DNA of 64,000 nucleotides from Candidatus Bathyarchaeota archaeon (lineage in GTDB: Archaea; Thermoproteota; Bathyarchaeia; 40CM-2-53-6): contig CAVSBL010000002.1 of the NCBI GenBank assembly GCA_963726255.1, positions 32,001 to 96,000 of the forward strand. The letters are read 5' to 3'. Positions within the stretch are counted from its first letter, which is position 1. Every line of letters starts with the position of its first letter. Made by a program: the position numbers and the translations under genes. Positions 3,397 to 64,000 of the stretch are shown here, one piece after another. The notes beneath the pieces are model-generated. The model ran no database searches and was not told where the DNA came from. It was given only the letters and a program-made list of their open reading frames with translations.

Positions 3397-5704
3397 CTAC
3401 CGTGTAAGATATTCGTCTATCCACAATTCTCTTCTTTGCTTCAGGCCAAAGCGTGAACGGCAGCAGACCGTACGATGAACGACCTAGGTGCGTGGTCCTG
3501 TCTGAGCCGCAATTGCTGCATTTCGGTGTGATTCCAAGGTCGGTGTGGTTGCAGACGCTGCAGGCTGAATAGTTCGCTGTATACGTCAAGAACTTGCAAC
3601 CATATTCAAACGCTCTCTCGGTGAGCTTCAAAAGAGCGGGCGCCGTGGAATCAGGGGAGATACAGACCACGCTGAGATGTCCGCCAGGCGTCGCTGATTG
3701 AAACCCCGATTCCATATCCAACCTGCTGTCGATAGTCATTTTCGTTGTCAAAGGAATGGTCGGCAAGTCGGTGTAGTACAAGAGGCCCCTAGATCCGTCT
3801 GCTACAATAACCGCCCTCCCATATTGCTCCATGTCCAATTCCGCGAGCCTACCCGCGGCTTCGTCCCCGGGCCGTTGTGAAACCAGAATGCGCAGCTCCG
3901 ATTCATCTGAGGCGGACTTTAGCAGGTTCGAAGCCTCTTGCAGGATTCTTAGGCCGAAATCAGCTGCCGCTTTGTCCCGTTCCATCCTGAGTCCGGTATG
4001 GGCGTCGACGGCTTCGTTCAGGCCAATAAATGAGAGATTGTAGGAAGAGTTCTTTTCGTAAAAGTAGGGTGAGGCGCCACCCTCCCCAGCCAAGAGAGGG
4101 AGCAGCGGTTGTTTCAGACGTTCGCTGACGAACTTTTTCTTGACTTTGAAACCTTCCACAGTTAACGCGACAGCCTCGCTAAGTAATGCTAGGAATTTTT
4201 CGTCGTTCTTCTTGGCCTCGTACGCTATTCGAGGAAGATTTATGAAAATAGTGTCCATGCTACCTGTTCTGATACAGTCCGCGTCCCAATGATTCGTCCA
4301 CTCATCGCCTAACCTAAGCCCCGTAGCCGAGTAACTGCTCTTTTCTTCGTCGCCAATTAGTTCGAAGAAGGGGATGCTGCGTTCTGCGGCCAGTTGGTGG
4401 GCTTTCTCAAGAATCAGTCTACCCTGCGCGTCACTCAGAGCCTTGCGCCTAACTTTTACTACAAGATGGGGCAAAACCGGCGGGCGTGACTGTGACATTT
4501 TCTGAAAAGCTTCGATTGTCGCACCGGCCAGCCGACTGCTTTCATCCGAGAAATCTGAATATTTGCCGGCGCTTTTGCCACCTGGACCGATCGCATTCTC
4601 CTGCGAAAGGAACGCTGGCATCGCCAAGTCAACTGAGACTGATATCCCTGCTAGAGGAGTGCTTGAGGGGATATCTTTCCGCAATGAAGTGAGGAAGTAG
4701 TAGATGCCGTTAGAAATGTCCTCCGCCGATCTTCCTTGGATGTATGGGGAGAGGAAAATGTTGAAGAATTCAAGCGTCTGCTCTCCTGAGACCTCGCCGG
4801 CCCCGAGTTCCAATACTTGGCGGACCAGTGCAAGCGCCGCTTCGAAAGTGTCGGGTGGTGATATTCCCGGGAGACTGTTCTTTAGGAAGTAACGGATGTC
4901 GTGAACAACTTCGTTTGGGGAAAGAATCCAGTTTTCCAAGTTAGCTATGTGAATCTCGCCCGAAAGGTGCGCATCCGCGAGTTTGTGAGGTAGGCAGTTG
5001 AGCAGAACATATTCCGAGAGAACCGACCTCGCCGACGAACGTTGAACGTAACCAGCGCTAAGCTGCTTCTCGCCCGCAGTTTTGATGAGTTGGGCCACAT
5101 CGTAAACTGGCATTCCAAGCCTTGTGAGCTTGTGGCGGTACTCCTCCAGTTTCTTCTCAATCAAAATCGCATTGACGAATTCGCGAATTAGCGGCGCAGT
5201 AAGGTAAGTCGTCTTTAATCTGACGAGCCTATCCTCAGCCTCGGCTGCTATCTCGTCTGCGATTTCTTGTGGGACGCCCGCTTCAACTACGAGTGACCTC
5301 GCGATCTTGTTCCTGTGGAATTCCTCTATTGCAAGCCTTGAAGATCTCACGTAGAGTTTGCCGCGCTTGACATTAACGTACTCGTCCAAGTCTCGAGCGA
5401 AGGATACGATCATTCGGCCGAGTTCAGTGACCTCGTACCGCTTTGTCTTCTTTTCAAGGGTCACTAGGCCTATGTCGGTTAGGCTTCGGAGATGATAGAC
5501 AAATTTGCCAGCGTCCCGCACAGGGTCAAGTTTGAGCTGGAACATTATTTCCGTATACTGGAGGGGGCCTTTGGTTGATAGAAGTCGTAAAATTTGTAGC
5601 CTTACGGGGGCAGACGCGGCGTCGAAAATGCCGGCGCCGACTCTCTCCGATGAACGAAGCAAGTGATTACCGCCTAGAAGATGGCTCGCAACCACCATAA
5701 GCAT
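3389..5704 (-). CDS. wHTH + ATP-cone + class III (anaerobic) ribonucleotide reductase-like fusion, catalytic residues apparently missing
   Basis: N-terminal ArsR-like HTH (RLQILRLL...AGKFVYHLRSL...YEVTELG); ATP cone (VRSSRLAIEEFHRNKIARSLVVEAG...LTAPLIREFVN); NrdD body (ADAHLSGEIHI, INLPRIA, IGLNEAV, GGHL, CSVC...CSNCGS). Confidence 0.85.
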   Translation of the reverse strand: MLMVVASHLLGGNHLLRSSERVGAGIFDAASAPVRLQILRLLSTKGPLQYTEIMFQLKLDPVRDAGKFVYHLRSLTDIGLVTLEKKTKRYEVTELGRMIVSFARDLDEYVNVKRGKLYVRSSRLAIEEFHRNKIARSLVVEAGVPQEIADEIAAEAEDRLVRLKTTYLTAPLIREFVNAILIEKKLEEYRHKLTRLGMPVYDVAQLIKTAGEKQLSAGYVQRSSARSVLSEYVLLNCLPHKLADAHLSGEIHIANLENWILSPNEVVHDIRYFLKNSLPGISPPDTFEAALALVRQVLELGAGEVSGEQTLEFFNIFLSPYIQGRSAEDISNGIYYFLTSLRKDIPSSTPLAGISVSVDLAMPAFLSQENAIGPGGKSAGKYSDFSDESSRLAGATIEAFQKMSQSRPPVLPHLVVKVRRKALSDAQGRLILEKAHQLAAERSIPFFELIGDEEKSSYSATGLRLGDEWTNHWDADCIRTGSMDTIFINLPRIAYEAKKNDEKFLALLSEAVALTVEGFKVKKKFVSERLKQPLLPLLAGEGGASPYFYEKNSSYNLSFIGLNEAVDAHTGLRMERDKAAADFGLRILQEASNLLKSASDESELRILVSQRPGDEAAGRLAELDMEQYGRAVIVADGSRGLLYYTDLPTIPLTTKMTIDSRLDMESGFQSATPGGHLSVVCISPDSTAPALLKLTERAFEYGCKFLTYTANYSACSVCNHTDLGITPKCSNCGSDRTTHLGRSSYGLLPFTLWPEAKKRIVDRRISYTVAS

Positions 5705-5855
5705 GCGCTGACGTTTAAAAAATTGTAGTTACCGCTATACCCCCATTATGGGGTTCAGAAATTCCCCATTCACAGCAATTGAGAATCTTTATTTTGGTTC
5801 GGCATGCGAGGAAGCGCCTCACAATGTAGGTGTTACGCGAGTGGATGAAGTGCGA

Positions 5856-6356
5856 ATGCGGGGAGCGGATTACAGTACCCTGGCGAAACTTGAAGAGGCC
5901 TTCGAACGAAAGGACCTTTCATTCTTCAAAACGTTCCTGCAAAACTCAAAGGGGCTCCCCCTCCTACTCCGAGTTCACGCAGTTTGCATGCTCGAGCACA
6001 TTGGAAACGAGGAAATGGTAGAGCCATTGTGCAAGGTCCTTGCGGAAGACCCTAGTCCCCTCACACGGCACGAAGCTGCGTTCACCCTTGGCCAGTTGGG
6101 TCACAGCTCAGCCGTGCCGGCATTGGTAGAGGCGATGCAACATGACGAGAGCCCAATCGTTCGACATGAGTCGGCCGTAGCACTGAGCTCCATAGGCGAC
6201 GATCGTGCAGTTCCTGATCTGAAGAAAGCAATCGAGGATAGCGATGAGGACGTCAGCAATTCAGCACTGATTGCTTTCGAGTATCTAGACTACTTACACC
6301 GAAGAAGAGAAAATGCTTCCGATAGGTTCGCGGTGAAACCGAAGATTAGGCTGTGA
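5856..6356 (+). CDS. HEAT/PBS-lyase repeat protein with two His-Glu motifs (DOHH-half-like)
   Basis: LTRHEAAFTLGQLG and IVRHESAVALSSIG repeats; in-frame ATG at 5856 preferred over the ORF-track start at 5748. Confidence 0.8.
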   Translation: MRGADYSTLAKLEEAFERKDLSFFKTFLQNSKGLPLLLRVHAVCMLEHIGNEEMVEPLCKVLAEDPSPLTRHEAAFTLGQLGHSSAVPALVEAMQHDESPIVRHESAVALSSIGDDRAVPDLKKAIEDSDEDVSNSALIAFEYLDYLHRRRENASDRFAVKPKIRL

Positions 6357-6392
6357 AGCCTTTTAGCTAGTGCCGCGTCCCTACTGGGCTTA

Positions 6393-6567
6393 GGGGCGGT
6401 GGTCCAGGCCACGAGTCTACCCATCGTGGGGACAACTTGGTCTAAGATAGCATCCACTTGCCTTAAAACCGGTCTCGGGACCTAAAAAATGCCGAACAGC
6501 GAGTACACCGGTGAGCGAGGGTTCAAAATGACCTCCCATGGTCAGGATATTCCCTCCCGCCCCACCA
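6393..6567 (+). tRNA. tRNA-Pro(CGG) with four introns: 15/16 (6408-6435), 25/26 (6449-6467), 37/38 (6480-6505), 59/60 (6528-6550); CCA encoded
   Basis: Removing the four inserts gives a 79-nt cloverleaf GGGGCGG TG GTCC AGCTTGGTCTA AGAT A CCGGT CTCGGGC ACCGG TGAGC GAGGG TTCAAAT CCCTC CCGCCCC ACCA; junctions form BHB/BHL motifs. Confidence 0.9.
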
Positions 6568-6624
6568 AACGATCCTTGCTCTTCACGCGAGCATTTTAGC
6601 GATATCGTATCGGTGTCAATTCGC

Positions 6625-7044
6625 CTACTTTCGTTCTAAAAGTTCTATCCAGATTCCATTTGGATCTTTGATGTACGCTTCTGTCCATCCGATTTCCGAT
6701 CCGATCGCATATGGTTCGACGACAACGTCGACGCCTCGTCGTTTCAGCTCTTTGACGGCACCTTCCAGATCTTGAACATCGAAGGCTATGTGGTCGAGGT
6801 CTTCACCGTTAACGTACGCCGAATTGAATGGGCTGTCTTCTTCGTAATGGTTGAGTTCTAGAACTTGTCCCGAGCTTGGGCTCTTGAGTGTAACCACACT
6901 GCCTTTGGTTGGTGTCATCTTCTGAAGAGGTTCCGCGATGATCATCCCTAGTACGTCCGTGTAGAACTTCAGTGATTCTTCCATGTTTTTCACTCGAATT
7001 CCGGTATAAGTGAAACGAAATCCAAAGGACATAGGCGATCGCAC
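6625..7044 (-). CDS. VOC/glyoxalase family protein
   Basis: TGIRVKNMEESLKFYTDVLGM, LELNHY, DHIAFDV, KDPNGIWIEL. Confidence 0.9.
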   Translation of the reverse strand: MRSPMSFGFRFTYTGIRVKNMEESLKFYTDVLGMIIAEPLQKMTPTKGSVVTLKSPSSGQVLELNHYEEDSPFNSAYVNGEDLDHIAFDVQDLEGAVKELKRRGVDVVVEPYAIGSEIGWTEAYIKDPNGIWIELLERK

Positions 7045-10666: not shown

Positions 10667-10814
10667 TGGTAGCGGGGGGTGGATGTTCGGGCTTTTCGCC
10701 TTTCGAACCACCGGTTGAGGAGTTTTTTCGACTCAATCTCAGGGTTTCTCGCCAGGATATGAGCCCTCCGCACGGGAAGGTTCTGCGGGTTAAACCTGGC
10801 TACCCCACCCCGCT
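10667..10814 (-). tRNA. initiator tRNA-Met(CAT) with four introns: 29/30 (10766-10782), 37/38 (10746-10757), 47/48 (10714-10735), 59/60 (10684-10701); CCA encoded
   Basis: Spliced 79-nt sequence AGCGGGG TG GGGT AGCCAGGTTTA ACCC G CAGGG CTCATAA CCCTG AGATC GGTGG TTCGAAT CCACC CCCCGCT ACCA; A1-U72 and three G-C pairs (29-31/39-41) mark an initiator; BHB/BHL at every junction. Confidence 0.92.
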
Positions 10815-31476: not shown

Positions 31477-32823
31477 TCAGCATGAAGATGATGATGCTTC
31501 GTATCGGACCCAGAATCCAGAAAGAAGGACTGTGGCGGAAAAGTAACTTTGGTCTTCGGCATTGCCGGGATTGCTTCCAGACCCATTTGTGATTGACGCG
31601 TCGCCCCAGAGCATGACAGAACCTGACGGCATAGCACCTAGGGAGGAGGAGGGAGGGTTAGTTAGTTTCATGTAATTCATTTTGTATATTGCGTAGTAGT
31701 TCGTACTTGGTGTAATCCTTGGCGCGTTAGCGGCCCCTCCGAACGCGACGGCCGGGTAGAATGCTCCTTCGTAGTACACGCCAAGAAGCGTCCCGTCGAG
31801 GTGATTTGCACTGTACCAGCCTAGATCTATCGAACCCGCAGTAGGGGTATACGCTGTTTGCCCTGTGTTTATGATATTTACGTAGATATACATCTGTGTT
31901 TTCGCTGTTCTCCCTGAGTTAATTGTGGACCCCAGAACCCCCGCGTAAGAACTAACATACGTAACCCACGGGTTTACGAAGTACAATGTGTTACCGGTAA
32001 CGGTACCGGTAACGGTACCCCCAGTCATTCCCGTGAGTGCTTCCGCATAATTAGACGCAGCCGGGTAGTTCTGTAAGGGCTCTTTGTGACAATATGTTAG
32101 ACCGCCCGTTCTCGATGTGCCGGATATCCCAGGCTCATTTTTGCTATCGTAACCTCCCGATATTGATTGGTATGCGACTTTCATTATTCCTGAGGAGAAT
32201 GCTGATTGACTTTGACCGAAAACCTGAAGCGGAACGGGCCACTGAAATGAGAACACGTTCCCCCTACTTGTGGCGATGAGGATCGAGTTCTGGGGAAAGG
32301 CAGGGCTCGGGTCTGGCAGGGTAACGGCGAATGGCAACGCCAGCACCACAGCATGATTTACTTCGCCCGGGTTAAGGAAACGGTTTGCTTGGTTGAAGGC
32401 GTAGGGAGCGATTGTGCTGGTTGGGTTCAGTATGCAGGGTGCCGGGTTGGGGGATGAGCAACCTGACCCTGCGGGCCCTGTGGAATTTATGTAGATCCTT
32501 GCGACCTGAACTCCAACCCCACCTAAGTTGCTTAAGCTCATATTGTAGCAGTTGTATGTGGTCGTGCAACCGCTCCCCCAACCGGAAATAGTGGCAGAGG
32601 TTAGAATTGTCAGACCTGGGGAATTGATCACTAGTTTTTCTGAGAACTGTTGACTATCTTGTTGCCCCATCTTCTTGACCAATTGTTGGTATTGGTTGTA
32701 TTGCTGTGAAACGAAAACCGTCGTCCCAAGCGCCGTTAGTATAAGTGAGAGTACTATCAGCCCGCCAATCATCGTACTAACCGCGTGGCGTCGGCGAAAG
32801 CCCAAGATTAGGGGCCTAAGCAT
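31477..32823 (-). CDS. large minor pilin/adhesin, paralogue 2
   Basis: ATG at 32823 (MLRPLILGFRRRHA|VSTMIGG) matches the paralogues; the ORF-track start at 32958 overlaps the upstream gene. Confidence 0.85.
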   Translation of the reverse strand: MLRPLILGFRRRHAVSTMIGGLIVLSLILTALGTTVFVSQQYNQYQQLVKKMGQQDSQQFSEKLVINSPGLTILTSATISGWGSGCTTTYNCYNMSLSNLGGVGVQVARIYINSTGPAGSGCSSPNPAPCILNPTSTIAPYAFNQANRFLNPGEVNHAVVLALPFAVTLPDPSPAFPQNSILIATSRGNVFSFQWPVPLQVFGQSQSAFSSGIMKVAYQSISGGYDSKNEPGISGTSRTGGLTYCHKEPLQNYPAASNYAEALTGMTGGTVTGTVTGNTLYFVNPWVTYVSSYAGVLGSTINSGRTAKTQMYIYVNIINTGQTAYTPTAGSIDLGWYSANHLDGTLLGVYYEGAFYPAVAFGGAANAPRITPSTNYYAIYKMNYMKLTNPPSSSLGAMPSGSVMLWGDASITNGSGSNPGNAEDQSYFSATVLLSGFWVRYEASSSSC

Positions 32824-32866
32824 TCTGGTAGCCTCTTCGCTTTTGGTACTAATCGCTACTTTCAAG

Positions 32867-34186
32867 TTATGTGCACGGGCTTGTTGATGATGGTTCGTAT
32901 CGTATCCATAGTCCGGAACCAAGGATTGTGCCGGAAAAGTAACTTTGGTCTTCGGCATTACTGTTCAAGCCATTCGTGATTGACGCTGCACCCCAGAGCA
33001 TGGCTGACGGGGCTCCAGGCTGCACATCCCATGGGGTGTTTGTTAAGCCAAAGTATTTGATTAGGAATATTGCGTAGTAAAATGCACCAGGTGCAATAAA
33101 CGGCGGATTCGATGTAGGATAGAATGCGCCATTGTAGTAAACGCCGATTAGATAACCGTCAATGTGGTTGGACCCGTACCACATTAGGTCTATTGTTCCG
33201 GCGTCGGGGTTATAGGACGTGGTCCCTGTGTTTACCACAACCATGTAGATGTAGAGCGTTGTACTGCCCGCGAGCGCGCCGGTGCTAGTCACGATTGCCT
33301 TACTATTGCCCCCGGTGATCCATGGGTTTACGAACCACAGTACGCCCGAGTCCCCGGAGGGCAATCCAGGTATATTTGTGAGTTTTTCCGCGTAACCGGG
33401 ACCTGCCGGATATGGTTGCGAGGACTCTGTGTGGCAATATTTGGATCCGGTTCCCCCACTATTGCCTCCACTGCCTCCTGCCACTGGGCCAGGTTCATTC
33501 TTGCTATCGAATCCCGTTCCCGTGTATGCGATTTTCATATTTCCCTGGGAATATGCTGATTGACTTTGACCGAAAACCGAAGCCTGAAGCGGCCATTGAA
33601 ATGTGAACACGTTCCCCCTACTTGTTGCGATGAGGATCGTGTTCTGGGGAAAGGCAGGGTTCGGGTTTGGCAGGGCAACGCCGATAGGTAACGCGAGGAT
33701 CACCTGATGATTTACTTCGCCCGGGTTAAGGAAACGGTTTGCTTGGTTGAAGGCGTAGGGAGCGATTGTGCTGGTTGGGTTCAGTATGCAGGGTGCCGGG
33801 TTGGGGGATGAGCAACCTGACCCTGCGGGCCCTGTGGAATTTATGTAGATCCTCGTGACCTGAACTCCGACGGTTCCTAGGTTGCTTATGGTAGCATTGT
33901 AGCAGTTGTATTTGTTGACACCACTACCATCACACCCGCTCCCCCAACCGGAAATAGTCGAGTTTACAATTGTTAGGCCGGGGGATATGGCTACGAGGTT
34001 TTCTGACCATTGTTGATTACGGTATTGGGCCATTTTGTTGGCTGTTTGTTGGTATTGGTCGTATTGCTGCGAAACGAAAACCATCGTCCCAAGCGCCGTG
34101 AGCAGGAGGGTTAGAACTATCACCCCGCCGATTATCGTGCTAACCGCACGCCGACGCCGAAGCCTGAAGATGAGGGTCCCAGACAT
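32867..34186 (-). CDS. large minor pilin/adhesin, paralogue 3
   Basis: RRRRA|VSTIIGGVIVL class III signal; extensive identity to paralogues 1 and 2. Confidence 0.85.
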   Translation of the reverse strand: MSGTLIFRLRRRRAVSTIIGGVIVLTLLLTALGTMVFVSQQYDQYQQTANKMAQYRNQQWSENLVAISPGLTIVNSTISGWGSGCDGSGVNKYNCYNATISNLGTVGVQVTRIYINSTGPAGSGCSSPNPAPCILNPTSTIAPYAFNQANRFLNPGEVNHQVILALPIGVALPNPNPAFPQNTILIATSRGNVFTFQWPLQASVFGQSQSAYSQGNMKIAYTGTGFDSKNEPGPVAGGSGGNSGGTGSKYCHTESSQPYPAGPGYAEKLTNIPGLPSGDSGVLWFVNPWITGGNSKAIVTSTGALAGSTTLYIYMVVVNTGTTSYNPDAGTIDLMWYGSNHIDGYLIGVYYNGAFYPTSNPPFIAPGAFYYAIFLIKYFGLTNTPWDVQPGAPSAMLWGAASITNGLNSNAEDQSYFSGTILGSGLWIRYEPSSTSPCT

Positions 34187-54915: not shown

Positions 54916-55224
54916 TGGGTCGACGTGTTGGCCGTAACCCACCTTCTGTTTTAGGCGACATTCATCTAGTCGGGATACCCGCGCCTCAGGCGGTTTTCAC
55001 GGGCGCCTATTATCCCTTTCACAGCGTGTGTAGGCATTTCACCCTTACCGCCAGCCTCCTCAACGCAAGCGCATCATAGTCGTCGGCTGGTGGAGGTTTT
55101 TTTCTGCGCCTTAACCCAACCTCTCGGCTGGCACTTCACAGTGCCACGCTTCCGCCATGTGGGTGGAGTTTCCTCAAGCCCAATACGCATAGGGCCCGGA
55201 GTCGCTCACCAACTCGCCAACCCA
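54916..55224 (-). ncRNA. rnpB: archaeal RNase P RNA
   Basis: On the minus strand, GAGGAAACTCCACCC (CR-I) and AAACAGAAGGTGGGTTA (CR-V) form P4; terminal P1 TGGGTTGGCG/CGTCGACCCA. Confidence 0.92.
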
Positions 55225-59338: not shown

Positions 59339-60887
<1,549 letters not shown>

Positions 60888-63120
60888 TAGTAAATTCGAA
60901 TGGACTGGAAGACAAATGAGTTGTGACTGCGAGCCAAGATGCGATAATGCAGCTTCCGAGCTAACATTCGGAAGCGAAGGGTATAGTGATCATTCACTCC
61001 GAAACGGATGATCATGATGAACACCGTGCATAGGCCTCAACGTTAGACGAGTGTGGGTTCCATAGTAAGTTCGGCATGATAAGCCACCTGAAGGATGGCT
61101 GGGCTTGGGCACTGAAGAAGGGCGTGGCAAGCTGCGATATGCTCCGGGTAGCCGCATGCAGGCTTCGATCCGGAGATACCCGAATAGGACTTCCAGCCGC
61201 GGGTGAAACCTGCGGCGCTCCGAAAAGGAGCGGGAACCTCCCGAACGGAAGCATCCAAGTAGGGAGAGGAACAGAAATCAATTGAGATTCCCCCAGTAGC
61301 GGCGAGCGAAAAGGGAACAGCTCAAACTGAACCTGCATGGGAAACTATGCGGGAATGTGGGGTTATAGGGCCCGACCGCGCCCTCGCTCGAGAAGTTGAA
61401 GTGGCCTGGAACGGCCCACCGTAGAGGGTGAAAGTCCCGTAAACATAACCGAGCAAGGTTTGGGTTGGTGTCCCTGAGTACTACGCCCCGGATTGGGCGT
61501 AGAAATTTGGGAGGAAGCAACTTCCAAAGCTAAACATGTCCCAAGACCGATAGCGCACTAGTACCGTGAGGGAAAGCTGAAAAGTACCCCGGAAGGGGGG
61601 CGAAAAGTGCCTGAAATCAGGTGGTAACAGTTGTGCACAGCCCGAAAGGGTAGATCCCCTCCGAAGGAAACCGCGGCAACGCGGCTGTACGCAAGAGGGG
61701 GGACCAGGGTTGTGCGTTCCGTTTTGTACCACGGGCCGGGGAGTTCATCTTCGTGGTGAGGCTAAGAGTGTGATGCTCGAAGCCGTAGGGAAACCAACAA
61801 GTTCGCAACGTCGCAAGACGCGAGGAACGAGATCTGAAAGGGTCTGAAATCACGGGGATGACACTAGAAACCGAGTGATCTAGCCTTGGGCAGGGCGAAG
61901 CCGGGCGAAAGCCCGGTGGAGGCCCGCATGGGTGATGACGTGCAAATCTCTCCGTTGACCTGGGGCTAGGAGTAAAAGGCCAATCTAACTCGGTGATAGC
62001 TAGTTCCCGCCGAAATATCTCTAAGGATAGTCTGGCCGGAGGTTGCCAGCGGGGTAGAGTACTGATTGAAAAACAAGGACTCGAAAGGGTCCACTTTTCG
62101 TTCAAACTCCGAATTCGCTGGCGCCGTAGAAGGCTGGAAACGGATGTGGGGGGTAAGCTCCCATGTCGCGAGGGGAACAACCCAGACTAGGGTTAAGGTC
62201 CCCAAATCCTGGCTAAGTGTAGAAATAGAAAGCGGTCCTCAACCACAGACAGCTGGAAGGTAGGCTTAGAAGCAGCCATCCTCCAAGCAGTGCGTAACAG
62301 CTGACCAGCCGAGGTTGGGGGCGCCGAAAACGAACGGGGCTAAGCCAGGTACCGTTACCCTAGAACACGATGCATAATCGTGTTGGTAGGCGGGCGTTGT
62401 GGCTGGGCGGAAGCTGGGTTTTGAGATCCAGTGGACCGGCCACAAGTGTAGATCCCGGTGGTAGTAACAGCCATAGAGGGGTGAGAATCCCCTCCGTCGA
62501 AGGGGCAAGGGTTCCCCGGCAATGCGTCGTCAGCCGGGGGTAAGTCGGCCCTAAGGCAACCCTTAACCGGATAAGCCGAAAGGGAAACCGGTTAAAATTC
62601 CGGTACCACGGAGGTACACGCGGCAACGCAAGTCCGCAATCTGACGCTTGGGGATAAGTTGAGTGGGGCCGTCGCCCCATTTAACCCGTCAAGGCCGGGA
62701 AGTACCATAATGGTGAGAACCGGCCGAAGCGGGAAATAGCCGCCCGTCTTAGGGTGGTTCAGCCGAGTCCTCGAGCCAATGAAAAGGAGCACGGAATGAA
62801 TCCTCCGTGACCGTACCTAAATCCGACACAGGTGCCCCTAGGTGAGAAGCCTTAGACGTATCGGGTGGAACTTAGGCGAGGGAACTCGGCAAATTAGCCC
62901 CGTAACTTCGGAAAAAGGGGTGCCTGACGTTTTGGCGCAAGCTGGAACGCCAGGTCGCAGTGACTCGGGAGAAGCGACTGTTTACTAAAAACATAGGGAA
63001 CCGCCAGCCCGAAAGGGTGTGAACGGTTCCTGAGTCCTGGCCAGTGGCGGTACCTGAAACTCGGGTTCAACCAAGCTAAGGGCCGCTAAACGCCGGGAGT
63101 AACTCTGACTCTCTTAAGGT

Positions 63121-63822
63121 AAACAGTGGTTTGCCTTAACCAAATCCGGCTATATGCTGGAAGGTCTGGCGAATGTCACACTACTCCAATCGAACCTCCA
63201 AGAAACATAAGCAACCTTGGACTACGGTTGAAGTGAAAAAGTGTTGACTGCAGATAATCAGCAGGAAAGGCTGGATCCGCGATGGGTCACGGGATTCGTC
63301 GACGGCGAAGGATGCTTCCATATCTCCATAAACAAGCAACCAAAGATGAGCATGGGATGGCAAGTATTACCAGAATTTCGAATAGTGCAACACAAACGTG
63401 ACGAAGCACTTCTCAAGGAACTTCAACGATTCTTCAAAGCTGGGAAAGTGGTTGTGAATCACGACCAGCGAAAAGAACTCAGAATACGAAAATTGAATGA
63501 ACTGACCAACGTGATTGCTCTCTTCGAAAAATATCCACTAAGGACCAAGAAAAGCGAAGATTTCGAAGTTTTCAGACAAGTCTTGCGCGCAATGAAGCAA
63601 CGCGAACATTTGACTCGTGAAGGACTCGACAGGATAGCTAACCTTTGCTGGAAGATGAATCGAAAAGTGAAGCCGCGGTATCTAGAATCCTCAGAGACTC
63701 TACGCCGGAAATCGCTGAAGTGCGATTAAGATATAGTCCGACCCCTGTAGCGATGCAGGGAGGTTTGCGATGTGCAAACCCGCCTACAATATTTCTGTTA
63801 GGTCACGGAAGTAACAGATGTG
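63121..63822 (+). mobile_element. group I intron (IB-like) at 23S position about 1931
   Basis: 5' exon ends in U with P1 TTAAGGT/GCCTTAA; P ATGCTGGAA, Q AATCAGCAGG (63256-63265), R TCAGAGACT (63691-63699), S AAGATATAGTCC (63728-63739); P3 CCGGC/GCCGG; terminal G at 63822; P10 TGGTT/AGCCA. Confidence 0.95.
63241..63729 (+). CDS. single-motif LAGLIDADG homing endonuclease
   Basis: WVTGFVDGEGCFHISI, FRIVQHKRD, KYPLRTKK...FEVF, HLTREGL. Confidence 0.93.
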   Translation: MLTADNQQERLDPRWVTGFVDGEGCFHISINKQPKMSMGWQVLPEFRIVQHKRDEALLKELQRFFKAGKVVVNHDQRKELRIRKLNELTNVIALFEKYPLRTKKSEDFEVFRQVLRAMKQREHLTREGLDRIANLCWKMNRKVKPRYLESSETLRRKSLKCD

Positions 63823-64000
63823 AGCCAAATGCCTTGTCGGGTAAGTTCCGACGTGCATGAATGGATCAACGACTTCTCCGCTGTCCCCGCCTAGGGCCCG
63901 GTGAACCCACAACCTGGACGAACAGTCCAAGGTCTTCCAGCGGGGCGAGAAGTCCCCGTGGAGTTTTACTGCAACCTGTCGCTGGGATGTGATTGCGGGT

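Follow-up and report, generated by a model that had tools for sequence, protein, structure and literature searches.

Organization of the tRNA-Pro(CGG) Gene

The window, that is, the whole 64,000-nt stretch of DNA analysed here, taken from a Bathyarchaeia genome (G000), holds at 6393-6567 (+) a 175-nt tRNA-Pro(CGG) gene with an encoded 3' CCA, situated in the noncoding gap between the open reading frames 5748-6356 (+) and 6625-7044 (-). Five exons and four introns, all on the plus strand, alternate within it. Exon 1 (6393-6407, 15 nt) covers positions 1-15 of the tRNA, with the 5' strand of the acceptor stem, U8, the 5' strand of the D stem and A14. [quoted passage not shown] Exon 2 (6436-6448, 13 nt) comprises positions 16-25, including 17a, 20a and 20b, and provides the D loop, with G18 G19, and the 3' strand of the D stem. 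At 25/26, it gives way to intron 2 (6449-6467, 19 nt), with a central helix UAAG/CUUA (4/4) and an inner helix of 3 bp. Exon 3 (6468-6479, 12 nt; positions 26-37) carries the 5' strand of the anticodon stem, U33, the anticodon CGG (6476-6478) and G37, and ends at the canonical 37/38 site, where intron 3 (6480-6505, 26 nt), of the hBH type, has its central helix CUCG/CGAG (4/4) stacked on the anticodon stem. Exon 4 (6506-6527, 22 nt; positions 38-59) contains the 3' strand of the anticodon stem, the variable loop, the 5' strand of the T stem and most of the T loop, which is interrupted at 59/60 by intron 4 (6528-6550, 23 nt), of the hBHBh' type, with a central helix paired at 2/4 and flanked by the T stem and an inner helix, each of 5 bp. 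Finally, exon 5 (6551-6567, 17 nt) supplies positions 60-73 and CCA, with the 3' strands of the T and acceptor stems and the discriminator A73. Exons 1, 3 and 5 are invariant in 20/20 copies of the gene in the genus.

The introns sum to 96 nt and the exons, including the encoded CCA, to 79 nt. Every figure of the initial annotation was reproduced on the sequence, namely the span, its 175 nt, the lengths and positions of the four introns and the intronic share of 96/175 nt, and the anticodon CGG and the BHB helices that it had described were present. It had proposed splicing in silico as a check, and the exons, when joined in this way, gave a 79-nt cloverleaf ending in CCA, which ARAGORN identified as tRNA-Pro(cgg). 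Its acceptor stem has 7 bp, its anticodon and T stems have 5 bp each, and its D stem has three pairs and a C13.A22 mismatch (20/21 stem pairs overall); it carries U8, A14, G18 G19, U33 and a 7-nt T loop. Proline tRNAs are recognized by an NGG anticodon with G37 and by the discriminator A73; the anticodon CGG, G37 and A73 of the spliced molecule are indeed the features expected of a tRNA-Pro isoacceptor. A split or permuted tRNA gene was rejected, all five exons being collinear inside 175 nt.

Other RNA genes were observed in the window, including an RNase P RNA at 54923-55217 (-), a 16S rRNA gene at 59340-60887 (+) and, after a spacer of 179 nt, a 23S rRNA gene (+) that runs from 61067 to 64000, where it is cut by the end of the window.

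Splicing Motifs and Position of the Fourth Boundary

According to the accessible text of a recent preprint, the BHB geometry pairs the four exon bases located 5' of the 5' bulge with the four intron bases located 5' of the 3' bulge, and each of the two 3-nt bulges is cut after its second base (bioRxiv 10.64898/2026.10.13.758758). We called a BHB strict when its central helix was paired at 4/4 and an outer helix reached at least 3 bp. Introns 1-3 have strict motifs, the inner helix of intron 3 being nearly nil (one pair), and intron 4 has a relaxed one, with 2/4 pairs in the central helix, where U.U and A.G remain unpaired at its ends, and 5 bp in both outer helices. This weak central helix may make the fourth cut inefficient, or dependent on the 5-bp helices on either side of it.

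A single nested secondary structure accommodates the four motifs together with the three exon stems that are left uninterrupted, so that no fixed order of intron removal is needed. The minimum free energy fold of the precursor recovers most of this nested structure; at -63.1 kcal/mol (z = -1.97), it is modestly better than those of shuffled precursors, 6/200 of which fold equally well.

Regarding the exact bonds, introns 1, 3 and 4 have no alternative placement that yields the same mature sequence. A cut of intron 2 shifted one base to the right gives an identical mature RNA, and BHB geometry favours 25/26. As for the fourth boundary, the initial annotation had left room for a shift to 58/59. 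This shift found no support, as counting from the 5 bp of the inner helix puts both cuts at 59/60, and the orthologs devoid of intron 4 (L021, L022, and L027) have the contiguous T loop that a 59/60 junction yields. The fourth boundary is thus placed at 59/60, and not at 58/59, because the junctions are seen as contiguous DNA in relatives.

Conservation Within the Genus and Intron Polymorphism Among Families

A DNA search of 40 related genomes, 22 of which were other genomes of the genus, returned full-length matches, introns included, in 18 of these 22, with 77-98% identity over 160-196 nt, one genome having two copies. With that of G000, 20 copies of tRNA-Pro(CGG) were thus available from 19 genomes of the genus, all with four introns at the same places. 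The other four genus genomes (76-96% complete) gave no full-length match, and a search for the exon 1 pattern found nothing in three of them and a single match, with one mismatch, in the other. Strict searching independently solved 12 of the 20 copies, that of G000 included, each with four introns at the same positions; only these 12 pass the strict BHB filter unrelaxed, and the other eight share the layout by alignment. In the 12 solved copies, introns 1-4 measured 27-28, 18-25, 14-26 and 21-25 nt, respectively.

Among the genus copies, the mature tRNA varies only at positions 17 (exon 2) and 47 (exon 4). The structure of the pre-tRNA, composed of the BHB helices and the exon stems, was paired in 97.0% of the 960 cells of the 20-row alignment, and in 42.5-51.9% when the 3' partners were slid by 1-3 columns as a control. 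Four pairs had changed on both sides (13 cells), all of them in the inner helices of introns: one in intron 1, one in intron 2 and two in intron 4. The observed covariation score was reached by 0/500 shuffles. Exon stems were constant within the genus and uninformative on covariation there; across families, pair 50:64 of the T stem reads A-U in the genus, U-A in L021 and L022, and C-G in L023-L027. The central helix of intron 4 was paired at 3/4 in most relatives and at 4/4 in five of them; the weak 2/4 helix of G000 and its nearest relative is a local change.

Outside the genus, the gene was found with other sets of introns. L021 and L022, which belong to other genera of the same family, have the two D-arm introns only, without those at 37/38 and 59/60, and L023, L025 and L026, from other families, have 37/38 and 59/60 only, without either D-arm intron. 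Introns are located at 15/16, 37/38 and 59/60 in L024, which is devoid of the one at 25/26, and at 37/38 only in L027. Considered intron by intron, intron 1 is absent, with a contiguous junction, from L023 and L025-L027, intron 2 from L023-L027, intron 3 from L021 and L022, and intron 4 from L021, L022 and L027; each of the four proposed junctions is contiguous in the DNA of some relative. The Rfam tRNA model recognized L027, L025 and L026 with 47.8, 38.6 and 36.7 bits, respectively, for a cut-off of 29. Exons are conserved, introns vary except in their helices, and introns are present or absent among relatives. Four polymorphic positions at one locus, in one order, make gains and losses datable.

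Blind Search and Genome-Wide Fragmentation of tRNA Genes

Standard tools did not detect the gene: neither ARAGORN nor Rfam reported a tRNA in the unspliced 64-kb window, and the Rfam tRNA search of the whole genome gave 17 matches above the cut-off, tRNA-Pro(CGG) being absent even at E <= 1. ARAGORN in intron mode made 35 calls on the genome, many with implausible kilobase "introns"; the call at 5390-5530 (-) of the window was dropped, as by eye it looked like coding sequence. A blind search, run with no prior knowledge of the locus, enumerated BHB candidates and walked back from every CCA through the T arm, variable loop, anticodon arm, D arm and acceptor stem, jumps being permitted only at BHB candidates. 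It was anchored on the encoded CCA, so that genes without it would escape. It covered both strands of chromosome C2; in C1 and C3-C5 (60 kb), ARAGORN found no tRNA.

Strict BHB motifs occurred at about 0.002 (0.2%) of arbitrary start-length pairs, with 437,340 candidates for 2,363,725 positions and 90 lengths on C2. The blind search returned 30 loci on C2, 19 of them with at least 20/21 stem pairs, among which tRNA-Pro(CGG) appeared with exactly the four introns of the initial annotation. On C2 reversed without complementing, only two loci were obtained, with scores of 17 and 18, and neither of them reached 20. ARAGORN accepted 19/19 spliced products of the strict set with the expected anticodon. 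Relaxed BHB rules gave mostly spurious many-intron solutions, with long inserts and poor stems; ARAGORN accepted most of these too. At 32492-33050 of the window, only low-scoring false solutions were obtained, and Tandem Repeats Finder found no tandem repeats there.

The 19 genes solved strictly on C2 contain 38 introns. One of them has no intron, seven have one, six have two, one has three and four have four, in a set that is biased toward easy genes, the strict filter favouring well-formed motifs. When the initiator Met gene, solved by a relaxed scan of the window, is included, 42 introns are counted in 20 genes, 19 of which are interrupted and five of which have four introns. These five are Pro(CGG), Pro(GGG), Glu(CUC), Tyr(GUA) and initiator Met. 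The initiator-type Met(CAT) gene, at 10667-10814 (-) of the window, has an A1:U72 end, 21/21 stem pairs and introns at 29/30 (17 nt), 37/38 (12 nt), 47/48 (22 nt) and 59/60 (18 nt). Introns lie at 15/16, 20b/21, 30/31 and 45/46 in Pro(GGG) (G000:C2:979121-979301, -), at 10/11, 20b/21, 37/38 and 59/60 in Glu(CUC) (G000:C2:1095561-1095710, -), and at 30/31, 37/38, 53/54 and 59/60 in Tyr(GUA) (G000:C2:1445282-1445480, -), ARAGORN accepting the spliced product of each of these three.

At 17 other loci of 107-178 nt, the acceptor stem is paired at 7/7, U8 and CCA are present and the T arm is intact. All are interrupted, exceeding the length of a mature tRNA by 31-101 nt, mostly with two or three inserts, which would sum to about 40 more introns in a provisional count based on a solver and on reading of the sequence. 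This meet-in-the-middle solver gave plausible results for most of the 17, and ambiguous or seemingly wrong ones for the Ser genes, Arg(TCT) and Gly(CCC); nearly all of its variants pass ARAGORN, which thus cannot decide among them. That both tRNA genes of the window carry four introns at six distinct positions, as the initial annotation had stated, was borne out by Pro(CGG) and initiator Met(CAT). Its suggestion of genome-wide hyper-fragmentation was supported as well, with 19/20 solved genes interrupted and the 17 further genes all overlong, and the count of introns per gene that it had advised came to 42 introns in 20 genes.

U33 is near-universal in tRNA anticodon loops. Read by eye, G000:C2:2206499-2206623 (+) is probably a tRNA-Arg(UCU) gene interrupted once in the D arm and once, by 25 nt, at 38/39, where the BHB is perfect (central helix 4/4, inner helix 6 bp). 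It would carry C33 and was missed by the solver, which demands U33. Nearly all the tRNA genes listed on C2 encode their 3' CCA.

Eight 3' ends made of CCA and a T arm were left unmatched, with no 5' acceptor strand within 420 nt on C2 (124294, 1249168, 1891514, 134697, 928877, 1192712 and 2285771, +; 1774584, -). Three of these eight share one acceptor strand, and two are preceded by tRNA-like 5' parts, at distances of 0.98 kb and 2.36 kb. Such ends could reflect split genes, introns of very great length, or the duplication of 3' fragments by integrated elements. Two further 3' ends in the orphan list looked like false anchors.

By our own count, A is the first base of 27/38 strict introns, and a purine-rich pair stands at the end of most of them, which suggests preferred bulge nucleotides. 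Among the 38 strict introns, no pair had a normalised global alignment score above 0.29, the best pair being that of two Ala paralogs at 21/22; there is accordingly no sign of recent intron copying between genes.

Putative Promoter, Splicing Enzymes and Copy Number

A putative BRE/TATA-like promoter is located at 6355-6367 (+), with a T-rich core at 6360-6366, at about -33 to -27 relative to the mature 5' end and some 26 nt from it. In 20/20 genus copies, the box, at about -33 to -24, keeps its distance to the gene within surrounding sequence that diverges. Its putative reading as a BRE/TATA promoter follows the archaeal TATA consensus and spacing. Contigs of four RNA runs gave no match to 6300-6650 of the window.

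Two EndA paralogs, of 188 and 187 aa, were found in the genome, on C2 around 748,246-748,812 and 1,451,462-1,452,025, with both Pfam domains in each. The first matches TIGR00324 (endA equivalog) with 90.9 bits and aligns to the catalytic half of fused enzymes; its best solved relatives are the chains 3p1z_B (143 bits) and 3ajv_B (138 bits), both from the crenarchaeal enzyme that forms a heterotetramer. In the second, the alignment is to the N-terminal half of fused enzymes, the structural one, with weak matches to beta-subunit models. The genome is thus predicted to encode a two-subunit (alpha/beta) splicing endonuclease, with one catalytic-like and one structural-like subunit and a predicted (alpha-beta)2 assembly. 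The ligase RtcB is encoded as well (571 bits).

The gene is the only proline gene with a CGG anticodon that was found, GGG and UGG proline genes being present in the genome too. Two strings spanning spliced junctions of tRNA-Pro(CGG) had 0 occurrences in the five contigs, and we therefore consider that there is no intron-free copy.

Discussion

The 6393-6567 region is very probably a single functional tRNA-Pro(CGG) gene, with four BHB introns spliced by an alpha/beta endonuclease and RtcB. From a mechanistic point of view, the gene would be transcribed from its own TATA-type promoter into a precursor of about 175 nt, in which each intron would fold with adjacent exon sequence into a BHB motif. 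One nested structure could hold all four motifs, and intron removal would then require no fixed order. An endonuclease of the (alpha-beta)2 heterotetramer type would cut within each 3-nt bulge, and RtcB would join the five exons into a tRNA of the 76-nt class, its CCA being already encoded. We infer that transcription, cleavage at exactly these bonds and ligation take place in this way.

A decaying pseudogene, in which insertions have accumulated and which is neither expressed nor spliced, would account for the failure of standard tools to find the gene and for the degenerate BHB of intron 4 (2/4) in this genome. Such decay is nevertheless very improbable. The exons are invariant in 20 copies from 19 genomes, bar two loop positions, the changes seen in introns keep the helices, and the upstream box is conserved; moreover, this is the only CGG proline gene found, there is no intron-free copy, and the same construction is seen in nearly all the other tRNA genes of the genome. 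Free deletion can also make a cloverleaf from any genome, and relaxed BHB rules did give many spurious solutions, mostly accepted by ARAGORN. A chance resemblance has however almost no probability here: under strict rules, nothing on the reversed chromosome equalled the score of tRNA-Pro(CGG), the same solution was reached in independent genomes, intron-free junctions exist in other families, and slid-partner controls were only 42-52% paired. The comparison of orthologs effectively refutes it.

A functional gene with other boundaries (58/59, 26/27, or a T-loop insert that is kept) deserves consideration too, although we regard it as improbable. Moving the cut of intron 2 by one base to the right does not alter the mature RNA, the T loop would have 7 nt after a 58/59 cut as well, and intron 4 has a weak central helix in this genome. 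The inner helix of intron 4 nonetheless fixes 59/60, a register in which five relatives have 4/4 pairs, and orthologs without this intron show the T loop of a 59/60 junction; introns 1, 3 and 4 cannot be placed elsewhere and give the same mature sequence, and a retained 23-nt insert would destroy the T loop.

The extent of this fragmentation in the class was surveyed by counting matches to the standard tRNA model (E <= 1e-5) in 91 genomes at least 90% complete. All counts of this survey are underestimates, 47 candidates per genome having been scored with stricter filters, as illustrated by the 13 matches of G000, for 17 in the whole-genome search. On this underestimating scale, the eight genomes of the family of G000 had 7-14 matches each and none had 25 or more; the 18 genomes from other families of the order had 11-27, with two genomes at 25 or more, and the 65 genomes from other orders of the class had 15-46, with 53 genomes at 25 or more. 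We tentatively propose, while holding it somewhat doubtful, that this Bathyarchaeia family, and less so its order, constitutes a third independent hot-spot of tRNA fragmentation beside the Thermoproteales and Asgard families. Its load would perhaps equal or exceed the highest reported, at more than two introns per gene and about 80-100 per genome, with hardly any gene left uninterrupted, and the orphan 3' ends would perhaps be genes with five or more introns, kilobase introns or split genes.

Standard annotation recovers less than half of the tRNA genes of this organism. For a widespread soil and peat lineage, MAG quality metrics based on tRNA counts and inferences on codon decoding will thus be wrong, and the order will be penalised. 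This lineage also offers an independent replicate for the question of why tRNA introns accumulate in some archaea, as well as natural substrates for the tolerance of alpha/beta endonucleases, the central helix of intron 4 being paired at 2/4 here and at 4/4 in five relatives.

Comparison With Known Systems

Split and tri-split tRNA genes, as in Nanoarchaeum and Caldivirga, have BHB-like junctions that are processed by the same endonuclease. In contrast to these, the five exons described here are collinear in one 175-nt gene, and trans-splicing is not needed. Among the nuclear tRNAs of the red alga Cyanidioschyzon merolae, one is interrupted in its D stem, at 37/38 and within its T loop, with BHB-like motifs and no strict order of removal, but this organism is a eukaryote, its tRNA genes carry no more than three introns each, and some of them are permuted, according to the available text of the report (PMC3728597).

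Within archaea, tRNA genes were described with up to three introns, and the densest set, that of Pyrobaculum calidifontis, has 71 introns in 46 genes, i.e., 1.54 per gene, in the part available of the tRNAscan-SE 2.0 paper (PMC8450103). Thermoproteales such as Pyrobaculum and Thermofilum resemble the present genome by their short BHB introns in the D arm, the anticodon arm and the T loop, their motifs likewise include the relaxed hBH and HBh' types, and their endonuclease is of the two-subunit (alpha-beta)2 kind (PMC8450103, PMC4090602, accessible text of both). In that available part, however, their genes are given no more than three introns each (PMC8450103), for four here, the strict set with the initiator Met having 42 introns in 20 genes, in a lineage of Bathyarchaeia from soil or peat-type metagenomes.

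Our literature search found no report of tRNA introns in Bathyarchaeia, heavily interrupted tRNA genes having hitherto been known mainly from Thermoproteales and some Asgard archaea. In the literature found, archaeal tRNA genes with at least four introns appeared only in the accessible text of a 2026 Asgard preprint, and the supplementary per-gene tables of the Asgard papers may hold more. A preprint on wetland Asgard archaea mentions, in its accessible text, 228 introns in three genomes; in the focal Asgard families, about 2.2 intervening sequences per gene were reported, with up to five in one gene, and an annotator missing 30% of them (bioRxiv 10.64898/2026.10.13.758758). The words Bathyarchae and Thermoproteota are absent from the accessible text of this preprint (bioRxiv 10.64898/2026.10.13.758758). 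Four introns in one gene are thus not unprecedented, because up to five are reported there. As in the genome studied here, almost every tRNA gene of these Asgard archaea, as far as the accessible text goes, is interrupted, many of them at noncanonical positions, in a different phylum. The mechanism is therefore already known; what is new is the lineage, the intron density, and a locus at which all four intron positions are polymorphic among families.
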